A stretch of DNA of 64,000 bases. It comes from a virus. The stretch covers positions 4,077 through 68,076 of the IMG/VR virus record IMGVR_UViG_3300045988_110853. The stretch is one strand, 5' to 3'. The stretch's first letter is position 1. Every line of letters begins with the position of its first letter. Below the pieces are notes generated by a model. The model saw only the letters and a program-made list of their open reading frames with translations. It did no database searches and had not been told where the DNA came from. The translations under genes were made by a program, and so were the position numbers. Shown here one piece after another: positions 3,893 through 28,320 of the stretch.

Positions 3893-4099
3893 TAATTATC
3901 TCCTTTCTTTGAGAAAATAAAAAAATGGTGTTACCTCTTTTGTATAATTAGAAGTAACACCATTTAGAAAATAGTTTTCTCAATAATCATTTCCAAAAGA
4001 GTAAAACCAAAATATATATTTAAATTTTAAGTTATCAATTCCAAACTTAAATTTTCTATCTACATTATATATTAATTTTTGGAAATGTTAATATATTGA

Positions 4100-6917: not shown

Positions 6918-8366
6918 CTACTCATATCCATCAGCAATTATTGCTTCTGGAAGTTCATGACTGAATCTACCACCGGAAACAACAAATTCAGCATTACCTT
7001 CAATAGTAAATAATTCTTTACCAGTACTTTCAAAAGTACCACCAGTAATTATAGTTTTACCAACATTAAGGGTATCATTGCTCTTAATGCTTTGAACAGT
7101 GGCATAACCATCATTTGTTGAGAAATAACCACCATTAATGGTAACAATCTTACCAACATTATAAATCATACCATAGAATTTACCATCATTAATAGTTAAA
7201 ACGCCATTATCATCATTTTTAATAGTAACATAAGCATCAATAAAAGTACCACCATTAATAGTTAACTCAGGAGACTCTGCGTTTTCACCATCAATGTGTT
7301 CTTTGCTATAATTATAATAACCATTATCAACTAAGCTAGATAATCCACCAGGGGAAGAGAAGATACCATCATTAATAGTCATATAACCGTGATTCTTTAA
7401 AACGTATCCTCCATTGCCTTTTTCATCAATAGAACGAGAATAAGTACCATTTTCAATTGTAGCATTACCATTACTTTCAATAACAGCTCTACCATTTTTA
7501 TTACATTCTACGTTGCCGTTACCGGTTAAAGTGAGATTACCCGTATTTTTAACCACAACAGGACAAGTATTGTTATTAACAATAACGGCATTATTCATAT
7601 CAACAGTAAATTTTTTATCTGCGGAAATTGGTTCATCTGCTTCAAGGCCACTACTTAATTTAATAGTTCCACCATCTTCAACAGCATCAATAGCTTCATT
7701 TACGCTAATAAAAGTTTGTCCGTTGACTTCAACTGAAGTGTCATTTGCGGTTTCGCCATATACTTTGATAACATCTAAATCAGTTTTTAAAGCATATTTG
7801 TCAAGTTCAACTTTCTCAACATAATCTTTTGCGATTTCTGCTTTAACATCTTCTACTTTTTGACCGACTTCAGTAATTTTATTATCTACATCAGAAATTT
7901 TTTGGTTAATTTCCCCGATAGAAGAATCAATTCCTTCAAACTTTTTATCTAAATCAGTAGTTAAATCTTTAATACTAACTTTGATAAGATTTGCAGTTTC
8001 TTCTTTATTGTAGTAATTACTAAGATCAACCGCGTGAAAAATTTCCCAGCTATCGCCATCCCAAATATAGAGAGTGCGCTCAGCCGTTACTTGATAAATA
8101 TCACCTGTTTCCGCAGATTCAGGTAAATTACTTTTTTCCGCGACTGTACCAATAAAATGAATAGCACCTTCATTGACGCCAACATATTTAAGTTCGCCCC
8201 AAGTAGAAGTGCCATCACCAATTTTTACTTGGCCTTTATTTTTTCCATCGAGGGTTACACATGGTTCGCCTGCTTTTGGAATGTAAGTGCTAGCAACCGC
8301 ATCCCATTGAGCTTGATATCCACGACGGAATTGGATAAGGGTCTGTAAAGTTTTCTTATTTGCCAT
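6918..8366 (-). CDS. tail spike/fiber with anchor domain plus beta-helix-like repeats (depolymerase-like)
   Basis: 482 aa; N-term IPKAGEPCVTLDGKNKGQVKIGDGTSTWGEL; C-term repeated NG/VxN strands; terminal TAG at 6918 may be read through to TGA at 6876. Confidence 0.65.
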   Translation of the reverse strand: MANKKTLQTLIQFRRGYQAQWDAVASTYIPKAGEPCVTLDGKNKGQVKIGDGTSTWGELKYVGVNEGAIHFIGTVAEKSNLPESAETGDIYQVTAERTLYIWDGDSWEIFHAVDLSNYYNKEETANLIKVSIKDLTTDLDKKFEGIDSSIGEINQKISDVDNKITEVGQKVEDVKAEIAKDYVEKVELDKYALKTDLDVIKVYGETANDTSVEVNGQTFISVNEAIDAVEDGGTIKLSSGLEADEPISADKKFTVDMNNAVIVNNNTCPVVVKNTGNLTLTGNGNVECNKNGRAVIESNGNATIENGTYSRSIDEKGNGGYVLKNHGYMTINDGIFSSPGGLSSLVDNGYYNYSKEHIDGENAESPELTINGGTFIDAYVTIKNDDNGVLTINDGKFYGMIYNVGKIVTINGGYFSTNDGYATVQSIKSNDTLNVGKTIITGGTFESTGKELFTIEGNAEFVVSGGRFSHELPEAIIADGYE

Positions 8367-8389
8367 TTACAAATTTCCTCCTTACTTAT

Positions 8390-8608
8390 TTACACTGGAA
8401 CTTCTCCGCCATCAATAACTTCATATGTATTATCGTCATTAATGTAAGGAAGGTCATTCCAAGCATGAACGCCATCGCCAACTTTTAATTTGCCAGTGTC
8501 TAATTCAAAACCCGGTTCTCCCGGACCTAAAAGAATATTTTTTTTAGTCCAAGTTTCTGCGTTTCCGCGTTTAAAATAAAACTTTGACTTCATATAAACA
8601 TCAGCCAA
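8390..8608 (-). CDS. small protein consisting of the tail-fiber anchor motif only
   Basis: 72 aa, GPGEPGFELDTGKLKVGDGVHAWNDLP, TAA stop. Confidence 0.45.
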   Translation of the reverse strand: MADVYMKSKFYFKRGNAETWTKKNILLGPGEPGFELDTGKLKVGDGVHAWNDLPYINDDNTYEVIDGGEVPV

Positions 8609-8626
8609 TTAAATACACCTCCTTAA

Positions 8627-8897
8627 TCAATACTACCGCCGTCCCAAATATATGTATTATCAGGATCAGAAGGTTCGGTGCTTCCACCGCCACTACTATT
8701 ATTACTATTGGATTTCTATTCAACCCAAGTATTATTATCTTGATAAATATATAATTTTGATGATTTAGGAATAAAAGCGGTACTACCAGGGAGCAATGAA
8801 ATTGTTGGAATTTTTTCAATATCTTCAACAGAATCAACTATAAATTTCTTCAATCCATAATTAACTTTACCATTTTGATGTGTTAAAGTATACATCT
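8627..8897 (-). CDS. small structural-module protein (1 in-frame TAG)
   Basis: MYTLTHQNGK...WVE-TAG-KSNSNN..., TAA stop. Confidence 0.35.
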
Positions 8898-8999
8898 TAT
8901 TGCCTCCTCTTTTATTACATCATTCTAAATAATATAAAAAAATATTCTTTATGAATATAAAAAATTGGCCTACTGAAAATCTCAATAGGCCAATTAATT

Positions 9000-11030
9000 T
9001 TAATAATTATTATATGCGGTTAGTAAAGTATCTAATTGTGTTTTAAAACTAGCATCACCTGACGCCACCTTAGTATTATTTCCCAAAGCAGTTGTTATAG
9101 CATTAAACCAAACTACTAAACGTAGGGGATTAGCGTCATTTATGGTAGCAATTGAACTATTTAAATAAGTATTTATATATCCCGCGAAAGTATTTGCTTC
9201 ACTTCTGGAATAGTCTTTCCAAGTAAATGCGGGCCACCAAACTGCGTAATAAGTTATATTAGATGTTCCAGTAGAAATTGAAGGTGTTGCTCCCTTTTTA
9301 TAAGTCGCGGTTTTTGCCGTAGACGATGTAGACCATCCTTTAAAAATATAATTATTGCGAGTAGGATAATTGGATCCGTTAATATTAAAAGAAGAATTAG
9401 TATTAACTGTCTGTGATCCCGGCCCGCCAGAACCGCCATTCGCATTATAAGTTATGGTTATTGTATTTCTTTTCCAAATCGCATAAAAAGTTGTTGAACC
9501 ACTTACTAATACAGAACTTCCTGCGCTATAGCCAGAAGTAGCAGATGAAGAAGTGCTCCATCCTTGGAAAGTATAGTTTGTACGAGATGGCGCGGAAGCC
9601 ATTGTAGCGTTCATAGAATCAGCGTAAACATAATTTGTAGACCAGATAGTATTAGTACCATCATTCTTGTTAAAGGTTATTGTATATTGTCTATAATAGT
9701 TATATTGCCACGGTATAGAATATGTGCTGCTATTACTCCAAGCGGCGTTTACATACCAATAATAAGTAGTGCTTGCTGATGCTGTATATTCAATTTTAGT
9801 ATCATAACCAGTTCCCGCTCCATCATCATCTACTTTTAATGTTGTTCCACTAACAGCACTTGTTCTACTAGTTCCCGAAGCAGCTGATAAAAGTGAAGAA
9901 CTTAAATAGCTATAATAGTCAGGACTTTTAGAATTACTGGTTGTTTTAAATACCAATTTTCCAGCATAACTTGGAGTTGTTACTGTAATATATCCTGCCT
10001 TATAAGCAGGTACAGAAGTAGTACCACTTGTTCCACTAGTACCACTACCTATAGTATACATACTAATTGGTGTCATCCAAGAACTTATTGATTCAAAATA
10101 AAAATAAAGTTTTCCTGAAAAAGCAGCAGGGCTACTCCAAGGAGCTATCGCTATTCTATAAGTTGTATTAGCAGTCACAGAAAACTAAGTTATTTTAAAA
10201 TGTCCGCTTCCGCCACTTTGATCGTCAGATATTAAATAATTTGTTATTGCCTAATATCCACTAGAAGCGCTTGAATTTAATCCCATTGAATTGGCATATC
10301 CTATAAATCCATAGTCATCAAAACTATCTCCAGAAGCATATGCAGTAAGAAGTCCATTTGAACTAGGAGTATAATCAATATACCCAATTCCGTAAGAAGA
10401 TAAATTATAGTCTACATAAGTATTGACTGCGCCACTATAATTACCTAAATTTTGTAAATACCATCCTGTTGGAGCTTCAGTATAAAAGAAAACTACATAA
10501 GGATGCCTTGAACTATGATTGGTACAAACAGAGTCTGTTCCATCATAATTTCCATTTTTTGCCTGTTCTACACATTTTGACCAAGTGCTATGATAAACAT
10601 AACCCTAATAAGTATATCCACTAATAGTAGGAGCTGTAATGCTTGAAGAAGAAGTGGAAGTTTCATAGCCCATATAATCTCCAGCGGTTAAATTGTAGCA
10701 ATCCCAATGATAATCATCATCAGAGCCACCGCTACCTCCTCCGCCTCCACCAGAATCTTCATCAGTCCAAGCAACTCCTGTTCCAGAGGCTCCATTATTC
10801 CACTAGCCTGCTGTATAATAATCTACTTCCCAAGCATATTCATACCTTGTGCCAGGAGTTAATCCTGAAATTCGAACCCAAGGAGTTCCAGTTGTTGAAG
10901 AACCAGTATCCGAAGTCCCATCATCTAAACGGACATATAACCTTCTACTAACATTATCTGAACTTATTCCACTTGCTTCAAAAATTAATGAGGTAGTAGT
11001 ACTACTTGTACAACTTACAGAAACAGCCAT
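9000..11030 (-). CDS. large structural protein with FN3-like motif (about 4 in-frame TAG)
   Basis: ATG 11028-11030 after RBS aagggagg; GLTPGTRYEY FN3 signature; joins track ORFs 10803-11030 and 9000-10178 through TAGs; TAA stop. Confidence 0.5.
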
Positions 11031-11980: not shown

Positions 11981-12207
11981 TTGAGGGTTTTAATTAGGTT
12001 AACCCACAACCTCCGATAGTGTGTCTACTGAACCAAAGGAATGCCCGATCGCCACATTCCACTCTTTAAAAGATGGACGCTTCTAATCCTACTTCCTATC
12101 GTATAAAAGGACTTATCAATGACTTTTATACATATTGCCTTTATTATCTTTATAAACAAATTAGCATTACCCAGTGCTACCGCGAGGAGGTTTTGTTTTT
12201 AGCACCG

Positions 12208-12296
12208 CAGCCCCGCTGGGATTCGAACCCAGAACGACTCCTTCAAAGGGAAAACGGTTTTAGAGACCGCCGTGTTAACCGTTACACTACGGGGCA
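12208..12296 (-). tRNA. suppressor tRNA, anticodon CTA (reads UAG); type-II-like long variable region, discriminator G
   Basis: Manual fold: D-arm GTGT AACGGTTA ACAC; anticodon stem GCGGT/ACCGT with loop CTCTAAA; T-arm CTGGG TTCGAAT CCCAG; 21-nt variable region. Confidence 0.7.
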
Positions 12297-13942: not shown

Positions 13943-14800
13943 TTAAGTAGTTAAAAATGCGTTATAACCTTTTGATTTTAAATCATTGATTACTTTAATA
14001 GCATTTGCTTTTATAGAAAAAGCACCTACTTGAACTTTATAATACTTGCCTATCTTGCGAATATAAGCATTTTTATAACCTGCTCCAATAGTATCAGGTA
14101 ATGCTTTAATCTTCAATAAGAAAGCATCAGCATTGGATTTAGATCCAAAAGCACCAAGTTGAACGCGATAAATAATTTGCGGTTTAAGGTAAACTGCCAT
14201 TACATTATCTACTGCGCGATTACCCCAGTCTTTAGTAATACAAGTTCCATTGTGAAGAACTTTTGTGCTACCACCGCCATCAAGATTAATAGCATAATCA
14301 ACCTTTAATGTTAAAAGTAAATTCTACATTTCCGCAAACGCCATACCTGGCTTTTCAATAGCGATTAAATAAATATTAGATTTATTATATGCTAATACTG
14401 TTCTGCGAGCTTTATAATCTAATTCTTTAGCATAAGTAATTTGAGCTTTTTTACCAGCTTTAATTAATACCGGATAACCACTGACAAAATCTTCAAATCT
14501 TTCTGTCCCAATTATGCCATATTTCAATTCACCATTAACTATGCCAAATCCTTCTTTATAAGAAGAAGTAGAATTAATGATTACACCATTATCCATATAA
14601 TTAAAACAAGTAGCACCATTATCCATACTAAAGAAACCGCCATTAGTTAAAATAGTAGGTTTAACCGCACAACTATCATAATATTGCTTTAAAGTCTAAC
14701 GCGGTTGGGCGCATAACGCCATATCTAACTTACTAATTTCTTCTTTTGGAATTTCAATAATTTTCACATACGAATAATTATTTGGAGAATATATTTTCAT
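13943..14800 (-). CDS. putative cell-wall hydrolase: NAGPA (phosphodiester glycosidase)-like domain plus C-terminal SPOR domain (2 in-frame TAG)
   Basis: RBS aaggaaggtg; YAINLDGGGST motif; C-terminal SPOR repeats YRVQLGAF..YKVQVGAF; TAGs at 14324 and about 14700. Confidence 0.55.
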
Positions 14801-14860
14801 CGAATCACCTTCCTTAATATTTTTAAGGTTTTAATGATTCTTATTAATGGAATATACCCT

Positions 14861-14937
14861 TGGCATCCCCGGAGCGATTCGAACGCCCGACACAAGGATT
14901 AGAAATCCTTTGTTCTATCCAACTGAACTACGGGGAC
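14861..14937 (-). tRNA. tRNA-Arg (anticodon TCT), CCA encoded
   Basis: Acceptor GTCCCCG/CGGGGAT, anticodon loop TTTCTAA, T-arm GGGCG TTCGAAT CGCTC. Confidence 0.8.
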
Positions 14938-15043
14938 AAATTCGCTACAAGACTCTTTATTCTTCTTAATCCCACATTAAGCGCTTATTGAAAGCAAAAG
15001 ATTGCTGTATGAGTCTTTATTTAGTTAAGAAAGGAAATACCAT

Positions 15044-15087
15044 GACAATGGTAGGGTGAGGGAGACTCGAACTCTCCATTGAGCGAT
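15044..15087 (-). other. tRNA 3-prime fragment-like element (T-arm GGAGA GTTCGAG TCTCC + TCACCCT A CCA)
   Basis: Lies 10 nt after the CCA of the upstream tRNA-like gene; no 5-prime half. Confidence 0.35.
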
Positions 15088-15090
15088 TTG

Positions 15091-15170
15091 GCCTGTGAGC
15101 TAAGATTTGAACTTAAATCTTTGTAGCGCTTCCAATATTTTACCATTTAAACTACCCACAGATAAGTCGC
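15091..15170 (-). other. tRNA-like gene with good acceptor/D/T arms and CCA but unresolvable anticodon arm
   Basis: CTGTGGG TA GTTT AAATGGTA AAAT ... TTAAG TTCAAAT CTTAG CTCACAG G CCA. Confidence 0.35.
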
Positions 15171-15208
15171 CTAGTCTAGCCTTTGACTTACCACCCCAGA
15201 TCGGCGAG

Positions 15209-15727
15209 TTAAGAAACCCGCGATTTTAACCAGTAAACAGACATTCGTTCTTCCGGCTGATTAGTCATTTCACCTTTTGGCCCTAAAATTTCAGGATAAG
15301 GCCAAACATATTCATTTGCGGTCTTTTCATCAGGAAATTCAACTTCCGCGTAGCAAAACTTTCCATCAACTTCACTAACTTCAATCAATCGCCCAGGATT
15401 ATAAATATCTTGAACCATATAATAATCCTTAATAATAGGATTATAACCTTCGTGTCGAGTTTTTCTAATCATTTCATAGAAATCCACGGAAATAGATGTT
15501 TCAACTTCCTCACGAGAAAGACCATCGCCATATTTGTATGTCATCTTATAATCAACTTGATTGGTTTTAAGATTAATGGCTTTCCGCACTCGAATTTCTT
15601 CAAGCACCTTACCATCATTATCAAAATCAACCATAATATAAATCTGCTCGATTTTCTTATGACGAACACATTTTTCCTTCATCCAAGAAGGGATATTCTT
15701 AATATCAAACTTACGTTCGATTTCCAT
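15209..15727 (-). CDS. CYTH-domain protein (triphosphate tunnel metalloenzyme; CyaB-like cyclase or triphosphatase)
   Basis: N-terminal EIERKF (ExExK signature), 172 aa, TAA stop. Confidence 0.65.
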   Translation of the reverse strand: MEIERKFDIKNIPSWMKEKCVRHKKIEQIYIMVDFDNDGKVLEEIRVRKAINLKTNQVDYKMTYKYGDGLSREEVETSISVDFYEMIRKTRHEGYNPIIKDYYMVQDIYNPGRLIEVSEVDGKFCYAEVEFPDEKTANEYVWPYPEILGPKGEMTNQPEERMSVYWLKSRVS

Positions 15728-15862
15728 CCTTATACTCCTTTAACTCTTGGAAATAAGCAAGAATCTATTCATTCTTATCAATAATTTCTGGGTTATAATT
15801 GTAATATTTCATAGAAGCAATTTGTTGCTCCCATTCAATAATCAACTAATCTACTGTATATT

Positions 15863-16492
15863 TCATATTTTATCAAATCTCCAAACATAATTATAAGCAG
15901 TTTTACGCTCGCCTCGGGCGACGTCCGCGATCCTTTTTGCTATTGTATCAATTGATGCTTTTGATACTTTTTGTGAAGCAATCCATCTAGCTCCATCACC
16001 GCAAGATTCAAAGTGAGAAATAAAATTCCCATCTCGATCTAAACAAGATATAGGTTTATTTCCAATTTTAGGAGCAACTGTTTGAATTTTTCTTCCTTGA
16101 AGAATTTTACAAACTGTTTTTTCACTAATATTAAGATATTTAGCTACTTCTTTTTGATTTTTTATTTTCTGATAAGTGTCAATAACTAAATCATAATCAA
16201 GATATTTCTTACCATCTCCGCCGAGAGTAGCATTATACCCATTTTTAAAAGAACCTAATTTTTCAATCCAATAAATTTCTCTATCTTCTGGATTATCAGT
16301 TTCTTCAATTAACTCAACATGAAAATGTTCTATTCCATATTTTCGCATTGCTGAATATAATGGACGTTTTTCATAACTCTCTTTTTTAAAAGCTCTACAA
16401 TGTTCTAAAAATCTTTCTTCAACAGTTCTTTCAGTTTTACCAACATAAATTTTCTAATTTATGTCATTAGTAATTTTATAAATGTATGCCAT
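15863..16492 (-). CDS. GIY-YIG homing endonuclease (1 in-frame TAG)
   Basis: YIYKITNDIN-TAG-KIYVGKTE...YWIEKLGSFKNGYNATLGG; C-terminal basic DNA-binding region; RBS aaaggagc. Confidence 0.6.
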
Positions 16493-16523
16493 ACTAAAAT
16501 AGCTCCTTTCTATAAAATTTAAT

Positions 16524-16610
16524 TGGTGCTTTTGGTGAGACTCGAACTCACACGAACTTGCGCCCACTAGATTCTTAGTCTAGCATGTATACCAATTCCA
16601 TCACAAAAGC
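16524..16610 (-). tRNA. type-II tRNA (Leu-like) with anticodon AAG (unusual A34), CCA encoded
   Basis: Acceptor GCTTTTG/CAAAAGC, anticodon stem CTAGA/TCTAG loop CTAAGAA, long variable arm, T-arm GTGAG TTCGAGT CTCAC. Confidence 0.6.
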
Positions 16611-16624
16611 ATTTCTTTACTTTT

Positions 16625-16662
16625 CATATATTTATTATATATTATTTTTTTAATAAAGTCAA
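16625..16662 (-). promoter_or_regulatory. class-A promoter (TTGACT-N17-TATAAT)
   Basis: -35 16657-16662, -10 16634-16639. Confidence 0.55.
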
Positions 16663-16698
16663 AAGAGCCGGTGTAAAGTATATTCACTTTACACCGGC
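16655..16698 (-). terminator. rho-independent terminator after AAA+ ATPase gene
   Basis: 13-bp inverted repeat GCCGGTGTAAAGT/ACTTTACACCGGC then T-rich on minus strand. Confidence 0.55.
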
Positions 16699-16704
16699 CG
16701 CGTA

Positions 16705-17844
16705 TCAATAAAGATACTTGTCAAAGGTGTTTGCGACCTTAGTTAAAACAACAGACTTAATTACGCGCTCTTCTTTAGCTTTCTTAATAGCTTCTCCACG
16801 TTTTTCGCTATCTTCAATCGTCCAGAAGTCATCAGGATCAATATACACTTCAATCTTCTTCGGGTCTGCGGTAATCATACCCTTTTCGATCTTAATTGAA
16901 TCAGGGGTCAACGCATAACGAATAGTTTTATTATTTGAAGCATAACCATCATACCATCTCTGATGATTAGTATTGGGATTATTAAACAAATTAACCGAAG
17001 CGCCATAAGTGTTATACACATCACCATTTACAGTAGTAATAGCGATATTAAAACGCACATTAGAGGTCTGAGAGATATTGAGGTCTTCAAGAGTTTCCGC
17101 AACACCATAACCCTGATTAAGTTCAAAAGCAATAGCACGAAGATAATCATAAGTCATATTAACGGTGCGAGAGAAATTTACAATATCCTTAATACCGTCC
17201 GCATACTTTTCATCAATCTTATCAGTAAGATACTCTACAATCTCTTCCTCTGTTGGATAGGTAATCTTAAAATGATAATGGAAACGGCCCGGTCGATTCA
17301 ACAGATAAACGTTAAGTCGATCAACTTCATTACAAGTGATAACAAAAAGCTTCTTACCATTATCGAGACCATCAAAAAGAGAAAGCATTTCTTCCTGCGG
17401 AGACGGACCTGCATGATCTTCAACATTGGAAGCAAAGTTCTTTTCAAACTCGTCGAAAATAACTACAACTTCCTGCTCGATGCTGGAAATAAAATCCGCA
17501 ATACCAGGCATATAAGTGTTAGCCAAAAGCACAGGATATCCTTCATCAATAGCCTTCTGCGAAAGGATACGAGCAAACAAAGACTTACCGATACCCTTCT
17601 GTCCGCTTAGGATAACACCAAGATTGCGGTCCGAGTGCTTAAAAGAATTAAGCACCTTATTGACTTTAACTTCGTGATTACCATAAATCTTTTCCTCATT
17701 GACCGCAAGATCAGAACGAGAAGAAAGATAAAAACCTGCCATTTTATTAAAGCAGATTTCAAAAGACATAAGCGGAAGTCGCTTATAAGTCTTAACGTCC
17801 TCGCCATAAATTTGATAGCGAGAACCAGCATTTACAATATTCAT
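16705..17844 (-). CDS. AAA+ ATPase
   Basis: Walker A GQKGIGKS, Walker B VVIFDEFE, sensor NRPGRFHYHF; TGA stop. Confidence 0.7.
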   Translation of the reverse strand: MNIVNAGSRYQIYGEDVKTYKRLPLMSFEICFNKMAGFYLSSRSDLAVNEEKIYGNHEVKVNKVLNSFKHSDRNLGVILSGQKGIGKSLFARILSQKAIDEGYPVLLANTYMPGIADFISSIEQEVVVIFDEFEKNFASNVEDHAGPSPQEEMLSLFDGLDNGKKLFVITCNEVDRLNVYLLNRPGRFHYHFKITYPTEEEIVEYLTDKIDEKYADGIKDIVNFSRTVNMTYDYLRAIAFELNQGYGVAETLEDLNISQTSNVRFNIAITTVNGDVYNTYGASVNLFNNPNTNHQRWYDGYASNNKTIRYALTPDSIKIEKGMITADPKKIEVYIDPDDFWTIEDSEKRGEAIKKAKEERVIKSVVLTKVANTFDKYLY

Positions 17845-17871
17845 ACTTAATCCTCTTAATTTAAAGTTTAA

Positions 17872-17958
17872 TGGCGGAATCGCCGCGGCTCGAACGCGGA
17901 CTACTCAGTGAGTAGGATGGATTAGCAATCCATTGGAATACCATTATCCCACGACTCC
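17872..17958 (-). tRNA. tRNA-Ser (anticodon GCT), long variable arm, CCA encoded
   Basis: Acceptor GGAGTCG/CGATTCC, anticodon loop TTGCTAA, T-arm CCGCG TTCGAGC CGCGG. Confidence 0.8.
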
Positions 17959-18049
17959 ATATATATAAATAGAATAATTTACTGCTTAAACAGATGACGT
18001 CCTCGTTTAAACCATACCACACCCTCACCCAACACCTCAATTATTCTAT

Positions 18050-18286: not shown

Positions 18287-18354
18287 ATCCTACCTCCTCT
18301 GCTTTTCTGGACTTGGAACCAGCTTATGGTAGCATTAGATAGGCGACCGCACTT

Positions 18355-22119: not shown

Positions 22120-22200
22120 TTGCCCGGAAAATGGATTTGAACCATTAACTTAATCTTAAATGATTATGACCTAACCTTTAGTCTATTCTGGAAGTTATTT
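22120..22200 (-). other. tRNA-like gene with 6- or 8-nt anticodon loop (TAATC ATTTAA GATTA)
   Basis: Acceptor TCCAGAA/TTCCGGG with mismatch, D-arm GAC TAAAGGTTAG GTC, T-arm AATGG TTCAAAT CCATT. Confidence 0.25.
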
Positions 22201-23161: not shown

Positions 23162-24979
23162 TTAGTAATTTGCAATCATTGTTTTAAAATCTTTAGAATT
23201 AAAAATTTCTCTCATTGGTTCAAGAATACATTTTTCAACCAAATATTTTCTATTTAAAATATTATTAAAATCTTCATTAGTATATTCATAATTATATTCT
23301 TTTAAAATATCAATTATTTCATCTTTAGAATATTTCCTACTTTTTACATAAGAATATAAATTAAGATACTTTTTAAATTTTTTATAATAAGGACTTACTG
23401 TAATATCTACGGCAAATTGATTATCTTCAAGAAGATAATCAGCAGGATCTTCAAATAGATTTTTTACAAAAATTTCATTAGGAATAGTTTGCACATCTAC
23501 ATTATTATATGAAACAAGTAAATCTCCTTGTGATAAAAGCCCTAAAAATCTATCAGTTAAAGTGTCTCCTTCAATTAAATCTGTAAATGTTAAAGAATCT
23601 TTAATAATATCATATACTCCATCACCAGTATCTAAATATTTTTGAATATGTCCGCATTTATTTTTAGTAAGAATAGCACTTTTTTTTAAAGTCTTTAATG
23701 TTTTACATTTATTTAAAAAAGAATACCAAAATCCGTCAAGATTGTCAAGATAAATATCAATTGCTGTAATTTTATTACTTAAAGATACATCAGCATAATA
23801 AATTTTTGCTCCAATTGATTTTGTAATTTTTTTATTCCACTCAAGAATTTCTTCATTAGAATAACTTTTATTCTCGTAGGATAAGAATACATCTTTATTT
23901 ATAGTATTTACATACTTTTTATTAAGAAGAATATTCTCAGGAAATGTATTTAAATTAGTAATACAAGAACCACCCATGATAATAATATCATCATCATTTA
24001 ATGTATTATAAGGAAGAATAATAGAAAATTTTCTATCATCATAAGAGAAACAATTTTGATACATTTCAGTTAAAATACGTTCAACCGCAATTTCAAACAC
24101 AGGAAAAGCGCCAAAATTTGCAGAAATAGTTCCATTTTTATAATTGATAAGAACTCCCATTACTACTGGAATATTAAAAGTTCTTGACATATCAATAATA
24201 TAATATTTATTACCATGAGATTCAATAGCATTAATAATATCTATTAGTTTTTTATCAGTAATACTATTAATATCAAAAAAATAATAATTTTTATCAGTAT
24301 TAGTATAAAAATGACTAACTACGTAATGTTCAAAAATTTCTGATAATCCTTGATTTAAAGCTTCAGTTAAAGTATTACCAGCGGCCATACCAGAGCTACC
24401 TTGATAACGTTGAACAAGACGTGGGTCTAAATATTTAATATCTTTATCATCGTTTAGATTGATATAAGGAGTGCCAAAAAATTTATTATTATACATAGAA
24501 ACAAGACAATCTTTAATTAAATAGTTAGTTTCTTCATCAAAAGAATTAAAAAATTTATACATTAAAGATTCTTTTTCTCCAAGAGCTTCTTCAAAGCTTA
24601 CTTCTTTTTCATTTTTAAATAATGAATATCCATAATTTTTTTGATTTGCTTTAATTTTTTCATTACATAAAAATGGATTACATAAATAATGTAATCCATT
24701 ACAAAATCTTTCATACATTTCAGCGTATCCAGAAGCCATAGCGAATTCTTTAGATACTCCTTTACCGAAAGATCTTAAAATAGAATGACCTTTATAATAT
24801 AAACGAAGAGCAAGACTCCAAGTCGTAGATTGTTCTTGACGCAAAACTTCTTCGATGCAATAAAAGTCTCGATCCGCGAAGAATTGCTTAATGTTATTTA
24901 CTGTGTCTAGAGGACTAATTTCTTTATAATGTTGTGAATAATTATTCATATGATATTTTGCCTTTCTTTTTCCTATCAT
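23162..24979 (-). CDS. YcaO-domain protein with about 300 aa C-terminal extension of unknown type
   Basis: SFGKGVSKEFAMASGYAEMYERF and QGSSGMAAGNTLTEALNQGLSEIFEHY match YcaO ATP-binding motifs; 605 aa, no in-frame stops. Confidence 0.7.
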   Translation of the reverse strand: MIGKRKAKYHMNNYSQHYKEISPLDTVNNIKQFFADRDFYCIEEVLRQEQSTTWSLALRLYYKGHSILRSFGKGVSKEFAMASGYAEMYERFCNGLHYLCNPFLCNEKIKANQKNYGYSLFKNEKEVSFEEALGEKESLMYKFFNSFDEETNYLIKDCLVSMYNNKFFGTPYINLNDDKDIKYLDPRLVQRYQGSSGMAAGNTLTEALNQGLSEIFEHYVVSHFYTNTDKNYYFFDINSITDKKLIDIINAIESHGNKYYIIDMSRTFNIPVVMGVLINYKNGTISANFGAFPVFEIAVERILTEMYQNCFSYDDRKFSIILPYNTLNDDDIIIMGGSCITNLNTFPENILLNKKYVNTINKDVFLSYENKSYSNEEILEWNKKITKSIGAKIYYADVSLSNKITAIDIYLDNLDGFWYSFLNKCKTLKTLKKSAILTKNKCGHIQKYLDTGDGVYDIIKDSLTFTDLIEGDTLTDRFLGLLSQGDLLVSYNNVDVQTIPNEIFVKNLFEDPADYLLEDNQFAVDITVSPYYKKFKKYLNLYSYVKSRKYSKDEIIDILKEYNYEYTNEDFNNILNRKYLVEKCILEPMREIFNSKDFKTMIANY

Positions 24980-25712: not shown

Positions 25713-27767
25713 TCAATCATATAAATCATACTCTTCTTTCTCAAGATAATTTAGAAATTGATCGTAAACAAATTGATAATATATATATCCATTAAAATAA
25801 TTTAATATTGGATATACTTCTTTTTTTAAATTATCAAATGATTTAATATATTCTCCATCTAAGCAATGAAAATTAATAGTATTATTTTTTATATCACTTA
25901 TAATTTTTTTACTCAATGGGCATAAACAATCATTATTTATTTGATTTAAAGGATAAATTAAATTTATTTTATATAAAATATAATAGCTTGTTTTAATGAA
26001 ATTTTCTATAAAATAATTATTATGTTTTATATAAATTAAATTATCATATTCATAGAAATATTTTATTTCATATAAAATTCTAATAATTATTGATTGTAAT
26101 ATTTTATTTTTTTTATCTGAATTTAAATTATAAATATAAAAAAACTATAAAAAGAAAATAACTATTTTTACTAAATAATCTATAGCTTCAGATAATCCTG
26201 TATGAGATATATTGCCTGGATTAATATTTAAATCAATTATATAATTTCCAATAGTCTAATCAATTAATTGCCCTTCTCCATATAAATTACATAAATCAAA
26301 GAATAAATTATCTTCACACAAACAAAAATTACTATATTTTATATTATATTTCTATAAAAAATCTCGCTTTAAAATTAACCCAAGCTTATTATCAGGAATA
26401 ATAAACTATATAAAATCATTTTTTTTATTATTTTTTATAGAATTATAAAGAATTTCTAATTCATTATCTGTATTAAATAAATCATCTGAATCCCAAAATA
26501 AAATATATTTATTAAATGAATTTTCTAAGCCTATATTTCGGGCGGATCCCGGACCTTTACGAGCAATATTTTTAAAAAAGAAACAAGAAAAATCCGCGTT
26601 ATCAAATATTTTAATAACTTTTCTTTCGCAAGCTGAATTATCACTTATTAAATATACACAGCAATCTTTAATAATTGTTTGCGCTCTTAATGAATTATAT
26701 AAATCAATTATCTAATTATCATTAAGATTATAATAAGGAATAATTATATCTATTTTACCATTAATAAATCTATTTATACATTTTTGTAAATAATAATTAT
26801 TATACCGGAAATCAATTGGGGTCTTACCATTTAAGAATTCCTAATAATTGTTTAGAAAATCTTCTTTATTATTTATAAGTTTTAAATAAAAGTTATAGTC
26901 TTCAAAATAAGCATTTTCCATTGATATAGTAAATTCTGATTTAGTATTATAACATTTATGCCATAGCCAAGAAGTGACCGGTAAAGTGGCATCACAATAT
27001 TTACAAATTTTTTTAGGTGAAAATATAAAATTATGTAAGTCATCTAAACTATTTATATTTTCTAATTGTAAATAATCTTTATCCTCTTCTGGAATATTTA
27101 AATTATATTTTTTACAATAAATATCTAAAAATGCGGAAAAGGGACAAATATATATTTTATAATCTTTTAATGTAAAACAAGGTATTTCATGCGGACAATA
27201 TTGATAATAAGCTTTTATTGGATCAGTATCTCCATTTTCATTTACAAGCTATTGACGCATAAATAATCGTTCTTGATGATTAAAAGCAATACCATATTCT
27301 TGACATTCTTCAACATCTTTATAATCTGTATAATTACTATAAGCAGTTATGTCAAATATTATATCCATATCAAGATATTCTTTTTTATGTTTAATAGTGT
27401 CTTTCATATTTAATCCGTTAGATAAAACTTTTAATTGAGTTTTTTCTTTTGGAAATATTTCACGAGCTATTTTACATAATTCAAATAATTGTGGGTGAAG
27501 AGTTGGTTCTCCACCCACAATCATAAATACTTTTATATTAGGAATTTTTTTATTAGCTATAATAATCTAATTGCGGAAATCATTTACATCAATAAACCAA
27601 GGGGTGGCTAAAGGTGAAAAATGATTGCAACCTGCACAATTAAGATTACAATGATCTACTACCTGTATCTCTAGACTTACACCATCATAAACAGATTTCC
27701 AAAGACTATGTGTATATGGAGGAGTCCCACGGTAATCTTTATCTTTCTTTATCTGTATATCGTTCAT
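25713..27767 (-). CDS. TAG-rich coding region: small radical-SAM (CxxxCxxC + GGEPTLHP), Cys-rich SPASM-like segment, then GT2 glycosyltransferase (IIIPYYN, DSDD); apparently one ORF with about 8 TAG
   Basis: VVDHCNLNCAGCNH and MIVGGEPTLHP at N-term; QYCPHEIPC...CKYCDATLP Cys cluster; GKIDIIIPYYN and FWDSDD GT2 motifs; only TAG interrupts the frame by eye. Confidence 0.4.
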
Positions 27768-28320
27768 CGAAATCTCCTAATATATGAGTGTTATAATCAA
27801 CTAATTCTCTTATTTGATTATTACGTTCATGTAAAAAACATTGAGTACAAATTTCATTTAAATCATTTAAAGGTTCATGGAAAAAATTGCAATAATGTTT
27901 TTCAAAATCAAAATATTTACAATGCTTATCACATATTAAAATATCATTATCTTTATCATAAATTACAGAATGGTCTTCTCGTAAACGAAAAGATAATTGA
28001 ATTTTAAACATTAAAGTTCCTTGATAAGAATATAAAAAAGTTTTATAAAATATGTCTTGAACTTTACTTTCAAAAGTAAATTTCTATTTATCTGTAGTAA
28101 TAAGCTCAATGCATTCTATTTCATTCTAATCTATAGTTTTAACTTGCTAATAAACCTAATTTAAAAAAGAATAATCAATATCATTCTAATCTTTAATTAT
28201 TTTCGCAAAAACTATTTCTTTTGGAAAATTTAATTGAAATATAATATCATCACATTGACGCTCATTAAATTTAACAGATTTTAAAATTTCTTTATTTGAA
28301 TTAATAAAATTAATAACCAT
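27739..28320 (-). CDS. Cys/His-rich hypothetical protein (about 5 in-frame TAG)
   Basis: MVINFINSNKE...; C-terminal CDKHCKYFDFEKHYCNFFHEP..CTQCFLHE. Confidence 0.35.

Follow-up and report, generated by a model that had tools for sequence, protein, structure and literature searches.

A phage gene set among tRNA genes encodes a CYTH protein that is most probably a NeuTTM-type triphosphatase and not a nucleotide cyclase

The stretch of DNA analyzed here (hereafter, the window) comprises 64,000 nucleotides of the IMG/VR virus record IMGVR_UViG_3300045988_110853 (positions 4,077 to 68,076). An initial annotation had proposed that positions 15209-15727 encode a CYTH (triphosphate tunnel) enzyme among tRNAs. 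An open reading frame (ORF) does span exactly these coordinates, from an ATG start to a TAA stop. The annotation had left its strand unstated, which is the minus strand; translated from the plus strand, the same interval has many stops. The CYTH ORF contains neither TAG nor TGA in frame. An in-frame TAA lies 15 nt 5' of the ATG, so an N-terminal extension of the protein is impossible. The N-terminus reads MEIERKF, which puts the ExExK signature of CYTH proteins at residues 2-6 (E2-I-E4-R-K6). The surroundings are as described: between 10855 and 22192 the minus strand carries all 20 tRNA genes that ARAGORN detects, 19 of which are also found by Rfam. Public collections contain the exact protein, with no name but 'hypothetical protein', in a 90% cluster of 733 members whose contigs reach ~196 kb, and a megablast search with positions 14000-18000 against 50,697 phage records returned no match. 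The source phage is a large gut phage that carries the CYTH gene within a tRNA array.

Scanned as a single sequence, the protein yielded sub-threshold matches to domains of unknown function in Pfam and only noise in NCBIfam. Among the PHROGs it matches phrog_6660 (E = 3.9e-15), a family labelled 'unknown function', and phmmer returned a weak match (E = 0.024) to Nitrosomonas europaea NE1496 (PDB 2FBL/3TYP). A search of 5.8 billion proteins provided 28 relatives, one of which carries the NCBI name 'CYTH domain-containing protein'; 25 of these homologs, 32-48% identical to the query outside the query's own clade, were used to build a family alignment and profile. Ten residues (E2, E4, R5, Y30, R46, K65, R72, E74, E128 and E130) are invariant across the 25 homologs and K6 is conserved in at least 90% of them, so that the resemblance of EIERKF to the CYTH hallmark is not a chance one. 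Run against PDB sequences, the profile matches NE1496, the triphosphate tunnel metalloenzyme (TTM) NeuTTM (2fbl/3typ), over its full length (residues 2-152) with E = 1.8e-28, and also the P. furiosus protein 1yem (E = 4.6e-4). Five of the 25 relatives individually match the Pfam CYTH model PF01928 (best E = 1e-8). These results, together with the fold search described below, bear out the proposed family. Relatives among 1.84 billion scanned cluster representatives numbered 9,915 with a cutoff of E ≤ 1e-3, and 302 with one of E ≤ 1e-30; the subfamily is thus a sizeable one.

An AlphaFold2 model computed from the 25-homolog alignment (predicted local distance difference test 94.8, predicted TM-score 0.87) shows a barrel of β-strands (residues 2-9, 20-35, 41-52, 58-68, 71-78, 98-106, 114-120, 124-131 and 148-153) and a C-terminal helix (162-171). 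In a Foldseek search with this model against the PDB, all matches down to E of about 1e-2 are CYTH/TTM structures. NE1496 ranks first (E = 4.6e-7, TM-score up to 0.71), followed by PH1819, AtTTM3, HpAC1, 1YEM and SaTTM, while thiamine triphosphatases (ThTPases; ranks 16 and 22-25) and class IV adenylyl cyclases (AC-IV; ranks 17-20, E = 3e-3 to 5.5e-3, TM-score 0.41-0.46) come later. Among viral models (BFVD), the top match is UniProt A0A8D9PE24, 'CYTH domain-containing protein [Bacteriophage sp.]' (TM-score 0.84, 38% identity), and the next matches are CYTH proteins of Aeromonas and Ralstonia phages (TM-score 0.65-0.69). The protein can thus be predicted with confidence to adopt the β-barrel tunnel fold, with the C-terminal helix as its plug.

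Alignment to NeuTTM pairs the active-site residues of that enzyme (given in brackets) with E2/E4/K6 of the ExExK motif (E4/E6/K8), Y30 of Q28-x-Y30 (Y28), R46-x-R48 (R39/R41), K65 (K52), R72/E74/E76 (R59/E61/E63), K100 (K85) and E128-x-E130 (E114/E116) of the phage protein. The downstream acidic metal-binding residues that the initial annotation had suggested looking for are therefore in place (E74, E76, E128 and E130). Grouping of the phage relatives at 60% CYTH identity gave 19 clades, in the representatives of which these positions are invariant or nearly so; E2 and E4 occur in every representative, and K6 is Arg in one of them (L034). Because the catalytic positions are kept across all 19 clades, the protein looks like an active enzyme. 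Tyr28 and Lys52 are the proposed catalytic dyad of NeuTTM (PMC3440374), and their counterparts Y30 and K65 are invariant in the family. The basic tunnel set of NeuTTM (K8, R39, R41, K52, R59, K85 and R87) is complete except for R87, which corresponds to Tyr102; the residue here is Tyr, Phe or Trp for most phage clades and for several of the bacterial relatives, a minority having Arg. On the alignment, this exchange is the only systematic active-site change relative to NeuTTM. Strand alternation with K100 would make Tyr102 face the tunnel. As aromatic residues set substrate orientation in ThTPase (W53) and AC-IV (F5) (PMC8233210), we suspect, by analogy, that the aromatic residue tunes the enzyme toward a base-bearing triphosphate.

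Both a CyaB-type adenylyl cyclase and a triphosphatase had initially been considered. Cyclases and phosphohydrolases of the superfamily are parted by three motifs (Vogt et al. 2021; PMC8233210). AC-IV enzymes carry the motif HFxxxxExExK, a small residue in place of the first Arg of RxR and Ala in place of the second Glu of the ExE motif on β8; ThTPases have no counterpart of the HF motif and keep both the Arg and the Glu. In the phage protein, ExExK begins at residue 2, and the first Arg of RxR (R46) and the second Glu of ExE (E130) are both present and invariant. The HF motif is also lacking in clades with short N-terminal extensions (MSNNNSIEIERK, MSANGIEIERK). All three motifs point to a TTM phosphohydrolase. 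With no HF motif and with R46 and E130 kept, the idea of a cyclase acting on host signaling is unsupported, and the chance that the protein is a class IV nucleotidyl cyclase making a cyclic nucleotide for that purpose is very remote. It does share the superfamily and the overall tunnel fold with CyaB and YpAC-IV, AC-IV structures do appear among the fold matches, and CYTH proteins are often annotated as adenylate cyclases by habit (PMC3440374). On the other hand, the phage protein fails all three AC-IV determinants, retaining the gate-keeper Arg and the second Glu of ExE, its best sequence and fold matches are triphosphatases, the AC-IV fold match being much weaker, and AC-IV enzymes form a small cluster (cluster 10) of the CYTH sequence similarity network (SSN) with 141 bacterial orthologs (PMC8233210). 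The triphosphatase alternative of the initial annotation is supported by the same motifs and matches.

Still less can be said for a thiamine triphosphatase, for which the probability is practically negligible. ThTPases belong to the same superfamily and are found by the fold search, but their W/YxRxR aromatic is lacking: two residues before the first Arg of RxR, where ThTPases have Trp or Tyr and AC-IV enzymes a small residue, the phage protein has E44, and most relatives have Glu as well. Known ThTPases, moreover, are mammalian enzymes in an SSN cluster of their own (cluster 8; PMC8233210).

Judged by its sequence, the protein is closest to the NeuTTM/CthTTM branch of the CYTH/TTM superfamily, and not to the AC-IV, ThTPase or Cet1-like branches. 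NeuTTM, which shares SSN cluster 2 with CthTTM, is a specific inorganic triphosphatase of Nitrosomonas europaea with strict specificity for inorganic triphosphate (PPPi), and it gives both the best profile match and the best fold match. Both proteins are stand-alone, single-domain and of similar size, and they share ExExK, QxY, RxR, K52, R59/E61/E63, K85, ExE and the Tyr28/Lys52 dyad (NeuTTM numbering). They differ in a clade-specific insert at residues 35-41 of the phage protein, and in that Leu112 and Leu147 of NeuTTM correspond to Tyr126 and Tyr165 (followed by Trp166), which resemble the aromatic pair anchoring the plug helix of SaTTM. NeuTTM crystallizes as an open barrel (PMC3440374), and the TM-score of the phage model to it is 0.6-0.7. 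Whereas the NeuTTM gene is bacterial and chromosomal, the CYTH gene is phage-encoded and lies in a tRNA array. SaTTM of Sulfolobus acidocaldarius (PDB 7NS8-7NSF) and AtTTM3, structurally characterized two-metal tripolyphosphatases, likewise have the tunnel fold, the acidic patch, the basic tunnel residues and a plug helix at the C-terminus. They belong to other SSN clusters, however (3 and 9), with 12-17% identity in the fold alignments, and the water-positioning DxY of SaTTM is QxY here, as in NeuTTM. The phage proteins named CYTH in public databases (A0A8D9PE24; the 'CYTH-like phosphatase' of Aeromonas phages CF8, D3 and 65.2; and that of Ralstonia phage RP12) have the same fold and come from large phages, but the 733-member cluster of the query has been left as 'hypothetical protein' and phrog_6660 without a function.

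Fusions and neighbors of the relatives provide clues to the biological role. One viral locus (L050) has the gene order NT5C deoxynucleotidase, NrdD, NrdG and then a CYTH::dUTPase fusion (355 aa, 7986-9053), and in another (L054) a dUTPase gene lies 0.85 kb downstream of CYTH. In the Aeromonas jumbo phage CF8, which is unrelated, the annotated 'CYTH-like phosphatase' gene starts 11 nt after the thymidylate synthase gene, with a dihydrofolate reductase gene nearby, and does not lie among tRNAs as the gene in the window does. Two bacterial representatives (P0140 and P0151) are CYTH-Maf fusions, and one stand-alone bacterial relative lies in an Oscillospiraceae genome. No recognizable additional Pfam domain was found in the long (~400 aa) or N-terminally extended relatives (P0064, P0094, P0111, P0139, P0109, P0129, P0161 and P0175). 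CYTH and MazG triphosphatases occur here and there among jumbo phages, and an earlier study suggested that they break down NTPs whose bases are unmodified (Iyer et al. 2021; PMC7824862). In view of the dUTPase and Maf fusions and the NrdDG and ThyA neighbors, the enzyme appears most likely to serve the (d)NTP or triphosphate pool during infection.

The same observations bear on the suggestion that the enzyme could manipulate host signaling or defense nucleotides, which found no backing: PADLOC models do not match the protein, and the fusions and neighbors of its relatives speak of ordinary nucleotide-pool metabolism. A counter-defense enzyme destroying a triphosphate signal, such as (p)ppGpp or (p)ppApp, linear pppA-oligoadenylates or a dNTP-derived signal, is chemically feasible for a TTM; the gene, with no in-frame TAG, could be translated under the standard code before recoding, and the aromatic residue at the NeuTTM R87 position could stack on a base. 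We nevertheless regard it as highly unlikely, given that no defense or anti-defense genes were recognized beside CYTH in the loci examined, that the close bacterial relatives are stand-alone genes of a housekeeping type, and that none of the papers found ties CYTH proteins to phage counter-defense.

The genomic setting was compared across viruses by scanning IMG/VR, which yielded 59 loci encoding CYTH relatives; almost all of their contigs measure 90-290 kb. Co-oriented tRNA genes flank CYTH on both sides in 42 of the loci, which fall into nine of the 19 clades, often at a distance of 6-27 nt, and many arrays of these nine gut-phage clades contain a suppressor tRNA(CUA). The identity of the flanking genes (upstream/downstream) varies by clade: Ser(tga)/Thr(tgt); His followed by Ile(tat) or Arg(tct); tmRNA, Lys or Phe followed by Arg(acg); Lys(ttt)/Pro; and Ile(tat)/Arg(tct). 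Several clades have only 14-26 nt, holding nothing but a Shine-Dalgarno sequence, between the CCA end of the upstream tRNA and the CYTH ATG, and 6-24 nt between the CYTH stop and the next tRNA. Such spacers leave no room for a promoter or terminator of its own, which implies that the CYTH mRNA of these tightly spaced clades arises from a tRNA-mRNA-tRNA precursor.

Since the 59 loci had been chosen by CYTH itself, the association with tRNAs was tested again with an independent anchor, the AAA ATPase of family phrog_2376, which co-occurs with CYTH in six clades; 80 loci (L068-L147) of at least 462 viral loci were used. CYTH is present in 12 of the 40 ATPase loci with at least five tRNAs within 10 kb and in none of the 40 with fewer (Fisher's exact p = 1.9e-4, the loci being phylogenetically non-independent). 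The view that CYTH is an obligatory part of phage tRNA arrays was rejected, as most islands lack it; in the phage group of the query, CYTH lives in tRNA islands as an optional passenger and not as a component that the tRNAs need. The ATPase itself is strongly tied to phage tRNA arrays, with at least one tRNA within 10 kb in 63 of the 80 loci and at least five (up to 39) in 40.

This distribution also bears on whether the enzyme acts as an RNA or tRNA 5'-triphosphatase, or as a remover of polyphosphate ends, on products of the tRNA island, for instance in tRNA maturation or repair. tRNAs occupy both flanks in nine divergent clades in spite of their differing identities; a phage transfer-messenger RNA (tmRNA) gene is the nearest upstream RNA gene or adjoins it in three loci; a Thg1-like tRNA 5'-end enzyme is encoded 2 kb upstream of CYTH in a tRNA-less locus (L053); and the TTM superfamily includes the Cet1-type RNA triphosphatases (PMC4641920). 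However, the ATPase-anchored arrays indicate that tRNA arrays function without CYTH, and where relatives occur in other phages, they belong to nucleotide-metabolism modules that contain no tRNAs. In the fold search, the triphosphatases of viral capping enzymes come far behind the CYTH proteins (rank 15 or lower, E ≥ 1.5e-3, TM-score 0.36-0.44), and PF02940 gives no match to the query. The tight embedding would follow just as well if tRNA islands, as highly transcribed sites, serve accessory genes and homing endonucleases as landing pads. An RNA-directed role is therefore unlikely. There is also a slim chance that CYTH, instead of being a general enzyme of the nucleotide pool that happened to land in a busy locus, is a functional accessory of the tRNA islands of gut phages, many of them with a suppressor tRNA(CUA). 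Released from the tRNA-mRNA-tRNA precursor by tRNA-processing nucleases, it would have RNA or tRNA ends, or a translation-linked triphosphate, as its target, the aromatic residue in place of Arg87 being an adaptation to a base-bearing substrate.

Phage tmRNA genes lie in the tRNA arrays of L033 (7465-7780), L039 (7402-7717) and L059 (7515-7853); DNDYFENYLAA and DNSYFENHLAA are their tag peptides. Upstream of CYTH, no RNA gene is nearer than the tmRNA (220-284 nt) in L033 and L039, and in L059 only a tRNA-Phe gene stands between the two.

The features around the CYTH gene of the window are listed in Table 1. Upstream, a hairpin that resembles a terminator closes the AAA-ATPase gene; when the window is compared with its relatives, a compensatory change is seen in this hairpin. 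The promoter-like sequence that follows and this hairpin are conserved in every clade-1 locus that has tRNA-Leu(aag). No terminator-like site was found on the minus strand between this promoter and CYTH, from which we infer that CYTH is transcribed together with the tRNAs from a promoter upstream of tRNA-Leu(aag).

Table 1. Features at and around the CYTH gene of the window
Feature	Position	Strand	Description
Suppressor-type tRNA, anticodon TCA	10855-10934	-	Reads TGA; ARAGORN label 'SeC' from the anticodon alone
Suppressor-type tRNA, anticodon CTA	12207-12296	-	Reads TAG; ARAGORN label 'Pyl' from the anticodon alone
tRNA-Arg(tct)	14861..14937	-	Next intact tRNA downstream of CYTH
Interrupted tRNA-Ile(UAU)	15049..15197	-	Starts 12 nt after the CYTH stop
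Inner tRNA-like element	15089-15161	-	73 nt; between anticodon-loop positions 36 and 37
CYTH/TTM gene	15209..15727	-	172 aa, 20.6 kDa, pI 5.3; predicted NeuTTM-like triphosphate phosphohydrolase
Upstream ORF	15711..15866	-	51 codons, two in-frame TAG; conserved; called as a 51-aa gene in L001
Shine-Dalgarno sequence AAAGGAG	15735..15741	-	Strong, canonical ribosome-binding site; 7 nt 5' of the CYTH ATG
GIY-YIG homing endonuclease	15863..16492	-	209 aa if the codon-13 TAG is read through (MAYIYKITNDIN-TAG-KIYVGKT)
tRNA-Leu(aag)	16524..16610	-	Nearest intact tRNA upstream of CYTH; first gene of the putative transcription unit
Sigma-70-like promoter	16634..16662	-	TTGACT-17-TATAAT, 11/12 consensus
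Terminator-like hairpin	16667..16699	-	15 bp; closes the upstream AAA-ATPase gene
AAA ATPase	16705-17844	-	phrog_2376, E = 2.8e-103

We consider it quite probable, then, that the gene encodes a stand-alone triphosphatase of the NeuTTM/CthTTM type, distinct from the cyclases, that manages the nucleotide or triphosphate pool and is carried within a tRNA island. By analogy with the family, the triphosphate moiety would be held in the β-barrel tunnel by K6, R46, R48, K65, R72 and K100, while two divalent metals would be bound by E2, E4, E74/E76, E128 and E130. Following the two-metal mechanism described for AtTTM3, YgiF and SaTTM (PMC4641920, PMC8233210), one of the metals would position the substrate, and the other would activate the water that attacks the terminal phosphate, giving inorganic phosphate and the diphosphate product; Y30 and K65 would act as the counterpart of the NeuTTM dyad. 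The likeliest substrates would be inorganic triphosphate and/or (deoxy)nucleoside triphosphates, with no nucleotide cyclization. The gene would be an auxiliary phage gene akin to the stand-alone bacterial ones, riding inside the tRNA island, and RNase P/RNase Z-type processing, by which the flanking tRNAs mature, may free its mRNA as well.

Several points weigh against this reading. The check proposed in the initial annotation, a search with PF01928, returned no match for the query itself even at E ≤ 10. This model is too insensitive for the CYTH branch of the query and, because it misses the protein, the absence of a hit, which the annotation had named as refuting evidence, would wrongly have rejected CYTH membership. 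NeuTTM, although the nearest characterized enzyme, is only 22-23% identical in structural alignments, and with Tyr102 in place of Arg87 the substrate preference may depart from the strict PPPi specificity of NeuTTM. The pool role is drawn from relatives 29-37% identical to the protein and not from the phage of the window, among whose scanned ORFs no recognizable nucleotide-metabolism gene was found; another 10 large ORFs from the window, scanned in addition, likewise yielded no nucleotide or DNA-modification gene. Bacterial operon context was tried as a guide to the pathway and set aside, as the three relatives examined are stand-alone genes whose chromosomal surroundings are uninformative. 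Finally, the region contains 13 promoter-like matches compared with 13.3 in shuffled sequence, so the promoter call rests on position and conservation.

That phages encode CYTH proteins is already known from UniProt and GenBank annotations and from the literature. The annotation of a large unannotated cluster, the aromatic variant at the R87 position and the tRNA-punctuated gene architecture appear to be new. No major concept is changed by the CYTH finding, but it gives a family and a class of activity to a 733-member cluster of 'hypothetical proteins' and to phrog_6660, and it reveals that PF01928 misses this particular branch of phage CYTH proteins. It also corrects an over-interpretation: with the cyclase gone, a signaling or defense story has no basis. 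The dUTPase and Maf fusions and the NrdDG, ThyA and NT5C neighbors add comparative evidence for the earlier suggestion of a (d)NTP-pool function. The unusual architecture of a protein gene 'punctuated' by tRNAs on either side, with a spacer consisting of the ribosome-binding site only, would also offer a convenient system for studying mRNA release from tRNA precursors during infection.

The two ORFs between tRNA-Leu(aag) and CYTH are of interest for the genetic code of the phage. The homing endonuclease gene, whose codon-13 TAG falls inside the GIY-YIG motif, fills the slot of tRNA-His(gtg) in close relatives (L002 and others), a tRNA that the window appears to have lost. The 51-codon ORF starts with an ATG that overlaps the stop codon of the homing endonuclease gene (ATGA) and ends with a TAA located 17 nt within the CYTH ORF. 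Between the window and L002, it has nine synonymous and six non-synonymous codon differences (hand count), besides a codon for which the window has CAA but L002 has TAG. By way of this small ORF, translation of CYTH might be coupled to the state of recoding. Three observations suggest that the phage reads TAG as Gln: treating TAG as sense lengthens many ORFs, a tRNA with anticodon CTA is present and, as direct evidence for Gln, CAA and TAG are exchanged relative to L002. The related phage phAss-1 has been classified in the 'code 15 clade'. With TAG read as sense, many split ORFs are joined, for example those at 13945-14830 (phosphodiester glycosidase and SPOR domain), 25715-27809 and 9002-11030; reading TGA as sense also lengthens some ORFs. 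In L043, the CYTH gene (7992-8500) itself contains an in-frame TAG.

More interesting than the enzyme itself is the interrupted tRNA-Ile(UAU) gene immediately downstream, in which a tRNA-like element is nested. The tRNA is uninterrupted at the same site in L004 and L010, while the 73-nt insert is present in the window and in L001, L002, L003, L005, L006 and L011. An acceptor stem of 7 bp, a D arm, a T arm and an encoded G-CCA end all belong to the insert itself, with an anticodon stem of only 3 bp and a loop of 9 nt, and Rfam scores it as a tRNA (41.8 bits, E = 6.6e-8). In the minimum free energy fold of the interrupted gene, the outer cloverleaf remains intact. Three base pairs have changed on both sides, all of them in helices of the inner element, and 99.3% of cells are paired, compared with 40-51% for slid partners. 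Two possible readings are an intron of tRNA-like form that RNase P/Z excises and a tRNA-like insert that is mobile. One literature search, which is no proof of absence, brought up no account of a phage tRNA whose anticodon loop holds a nested tRNA-like element. Several genes for tRNA-Ile(tat) and tRNA-Arg(ccg) in related phages have a length of 89-96 nt instead of the expected 74-77 nt (L033 1079-1173, L042 319-413, L034 7454-7544, L051 7880-7968 and the tRNA-Arg(ccg) of L012, L013, L015 and L026), suggesting that tRNA genes of this phage group commonly contain short insertions.

Three further features in or beside the array deserve mention. For the tRNA-like gene at 22122-22192 (minus strand; Rfam tRNA score 37.9 bits), ARAGORN reports a two-base 'anticodon' (tt). 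The oddity is kept in L002, L003, L007 and L011 (tt) and in L009 (tc), which suggests a shortened anticodon loop. Between tRNA-Ser(gct) and tRNA-Phe, adjoining a 78-aa ORF, lies a match to the twister-P1 ribozyme (18291-18341, minus strand), which at 39.1 bits (E = 1e-5) is below the gathering score of 67.2 and may be due to chance. Just past the end of the array, the minus strand encodes a YcaO-domain protein of 605 aa (23162-24979; PF02624, E = 1.2e-27), which is unusual in a phage.

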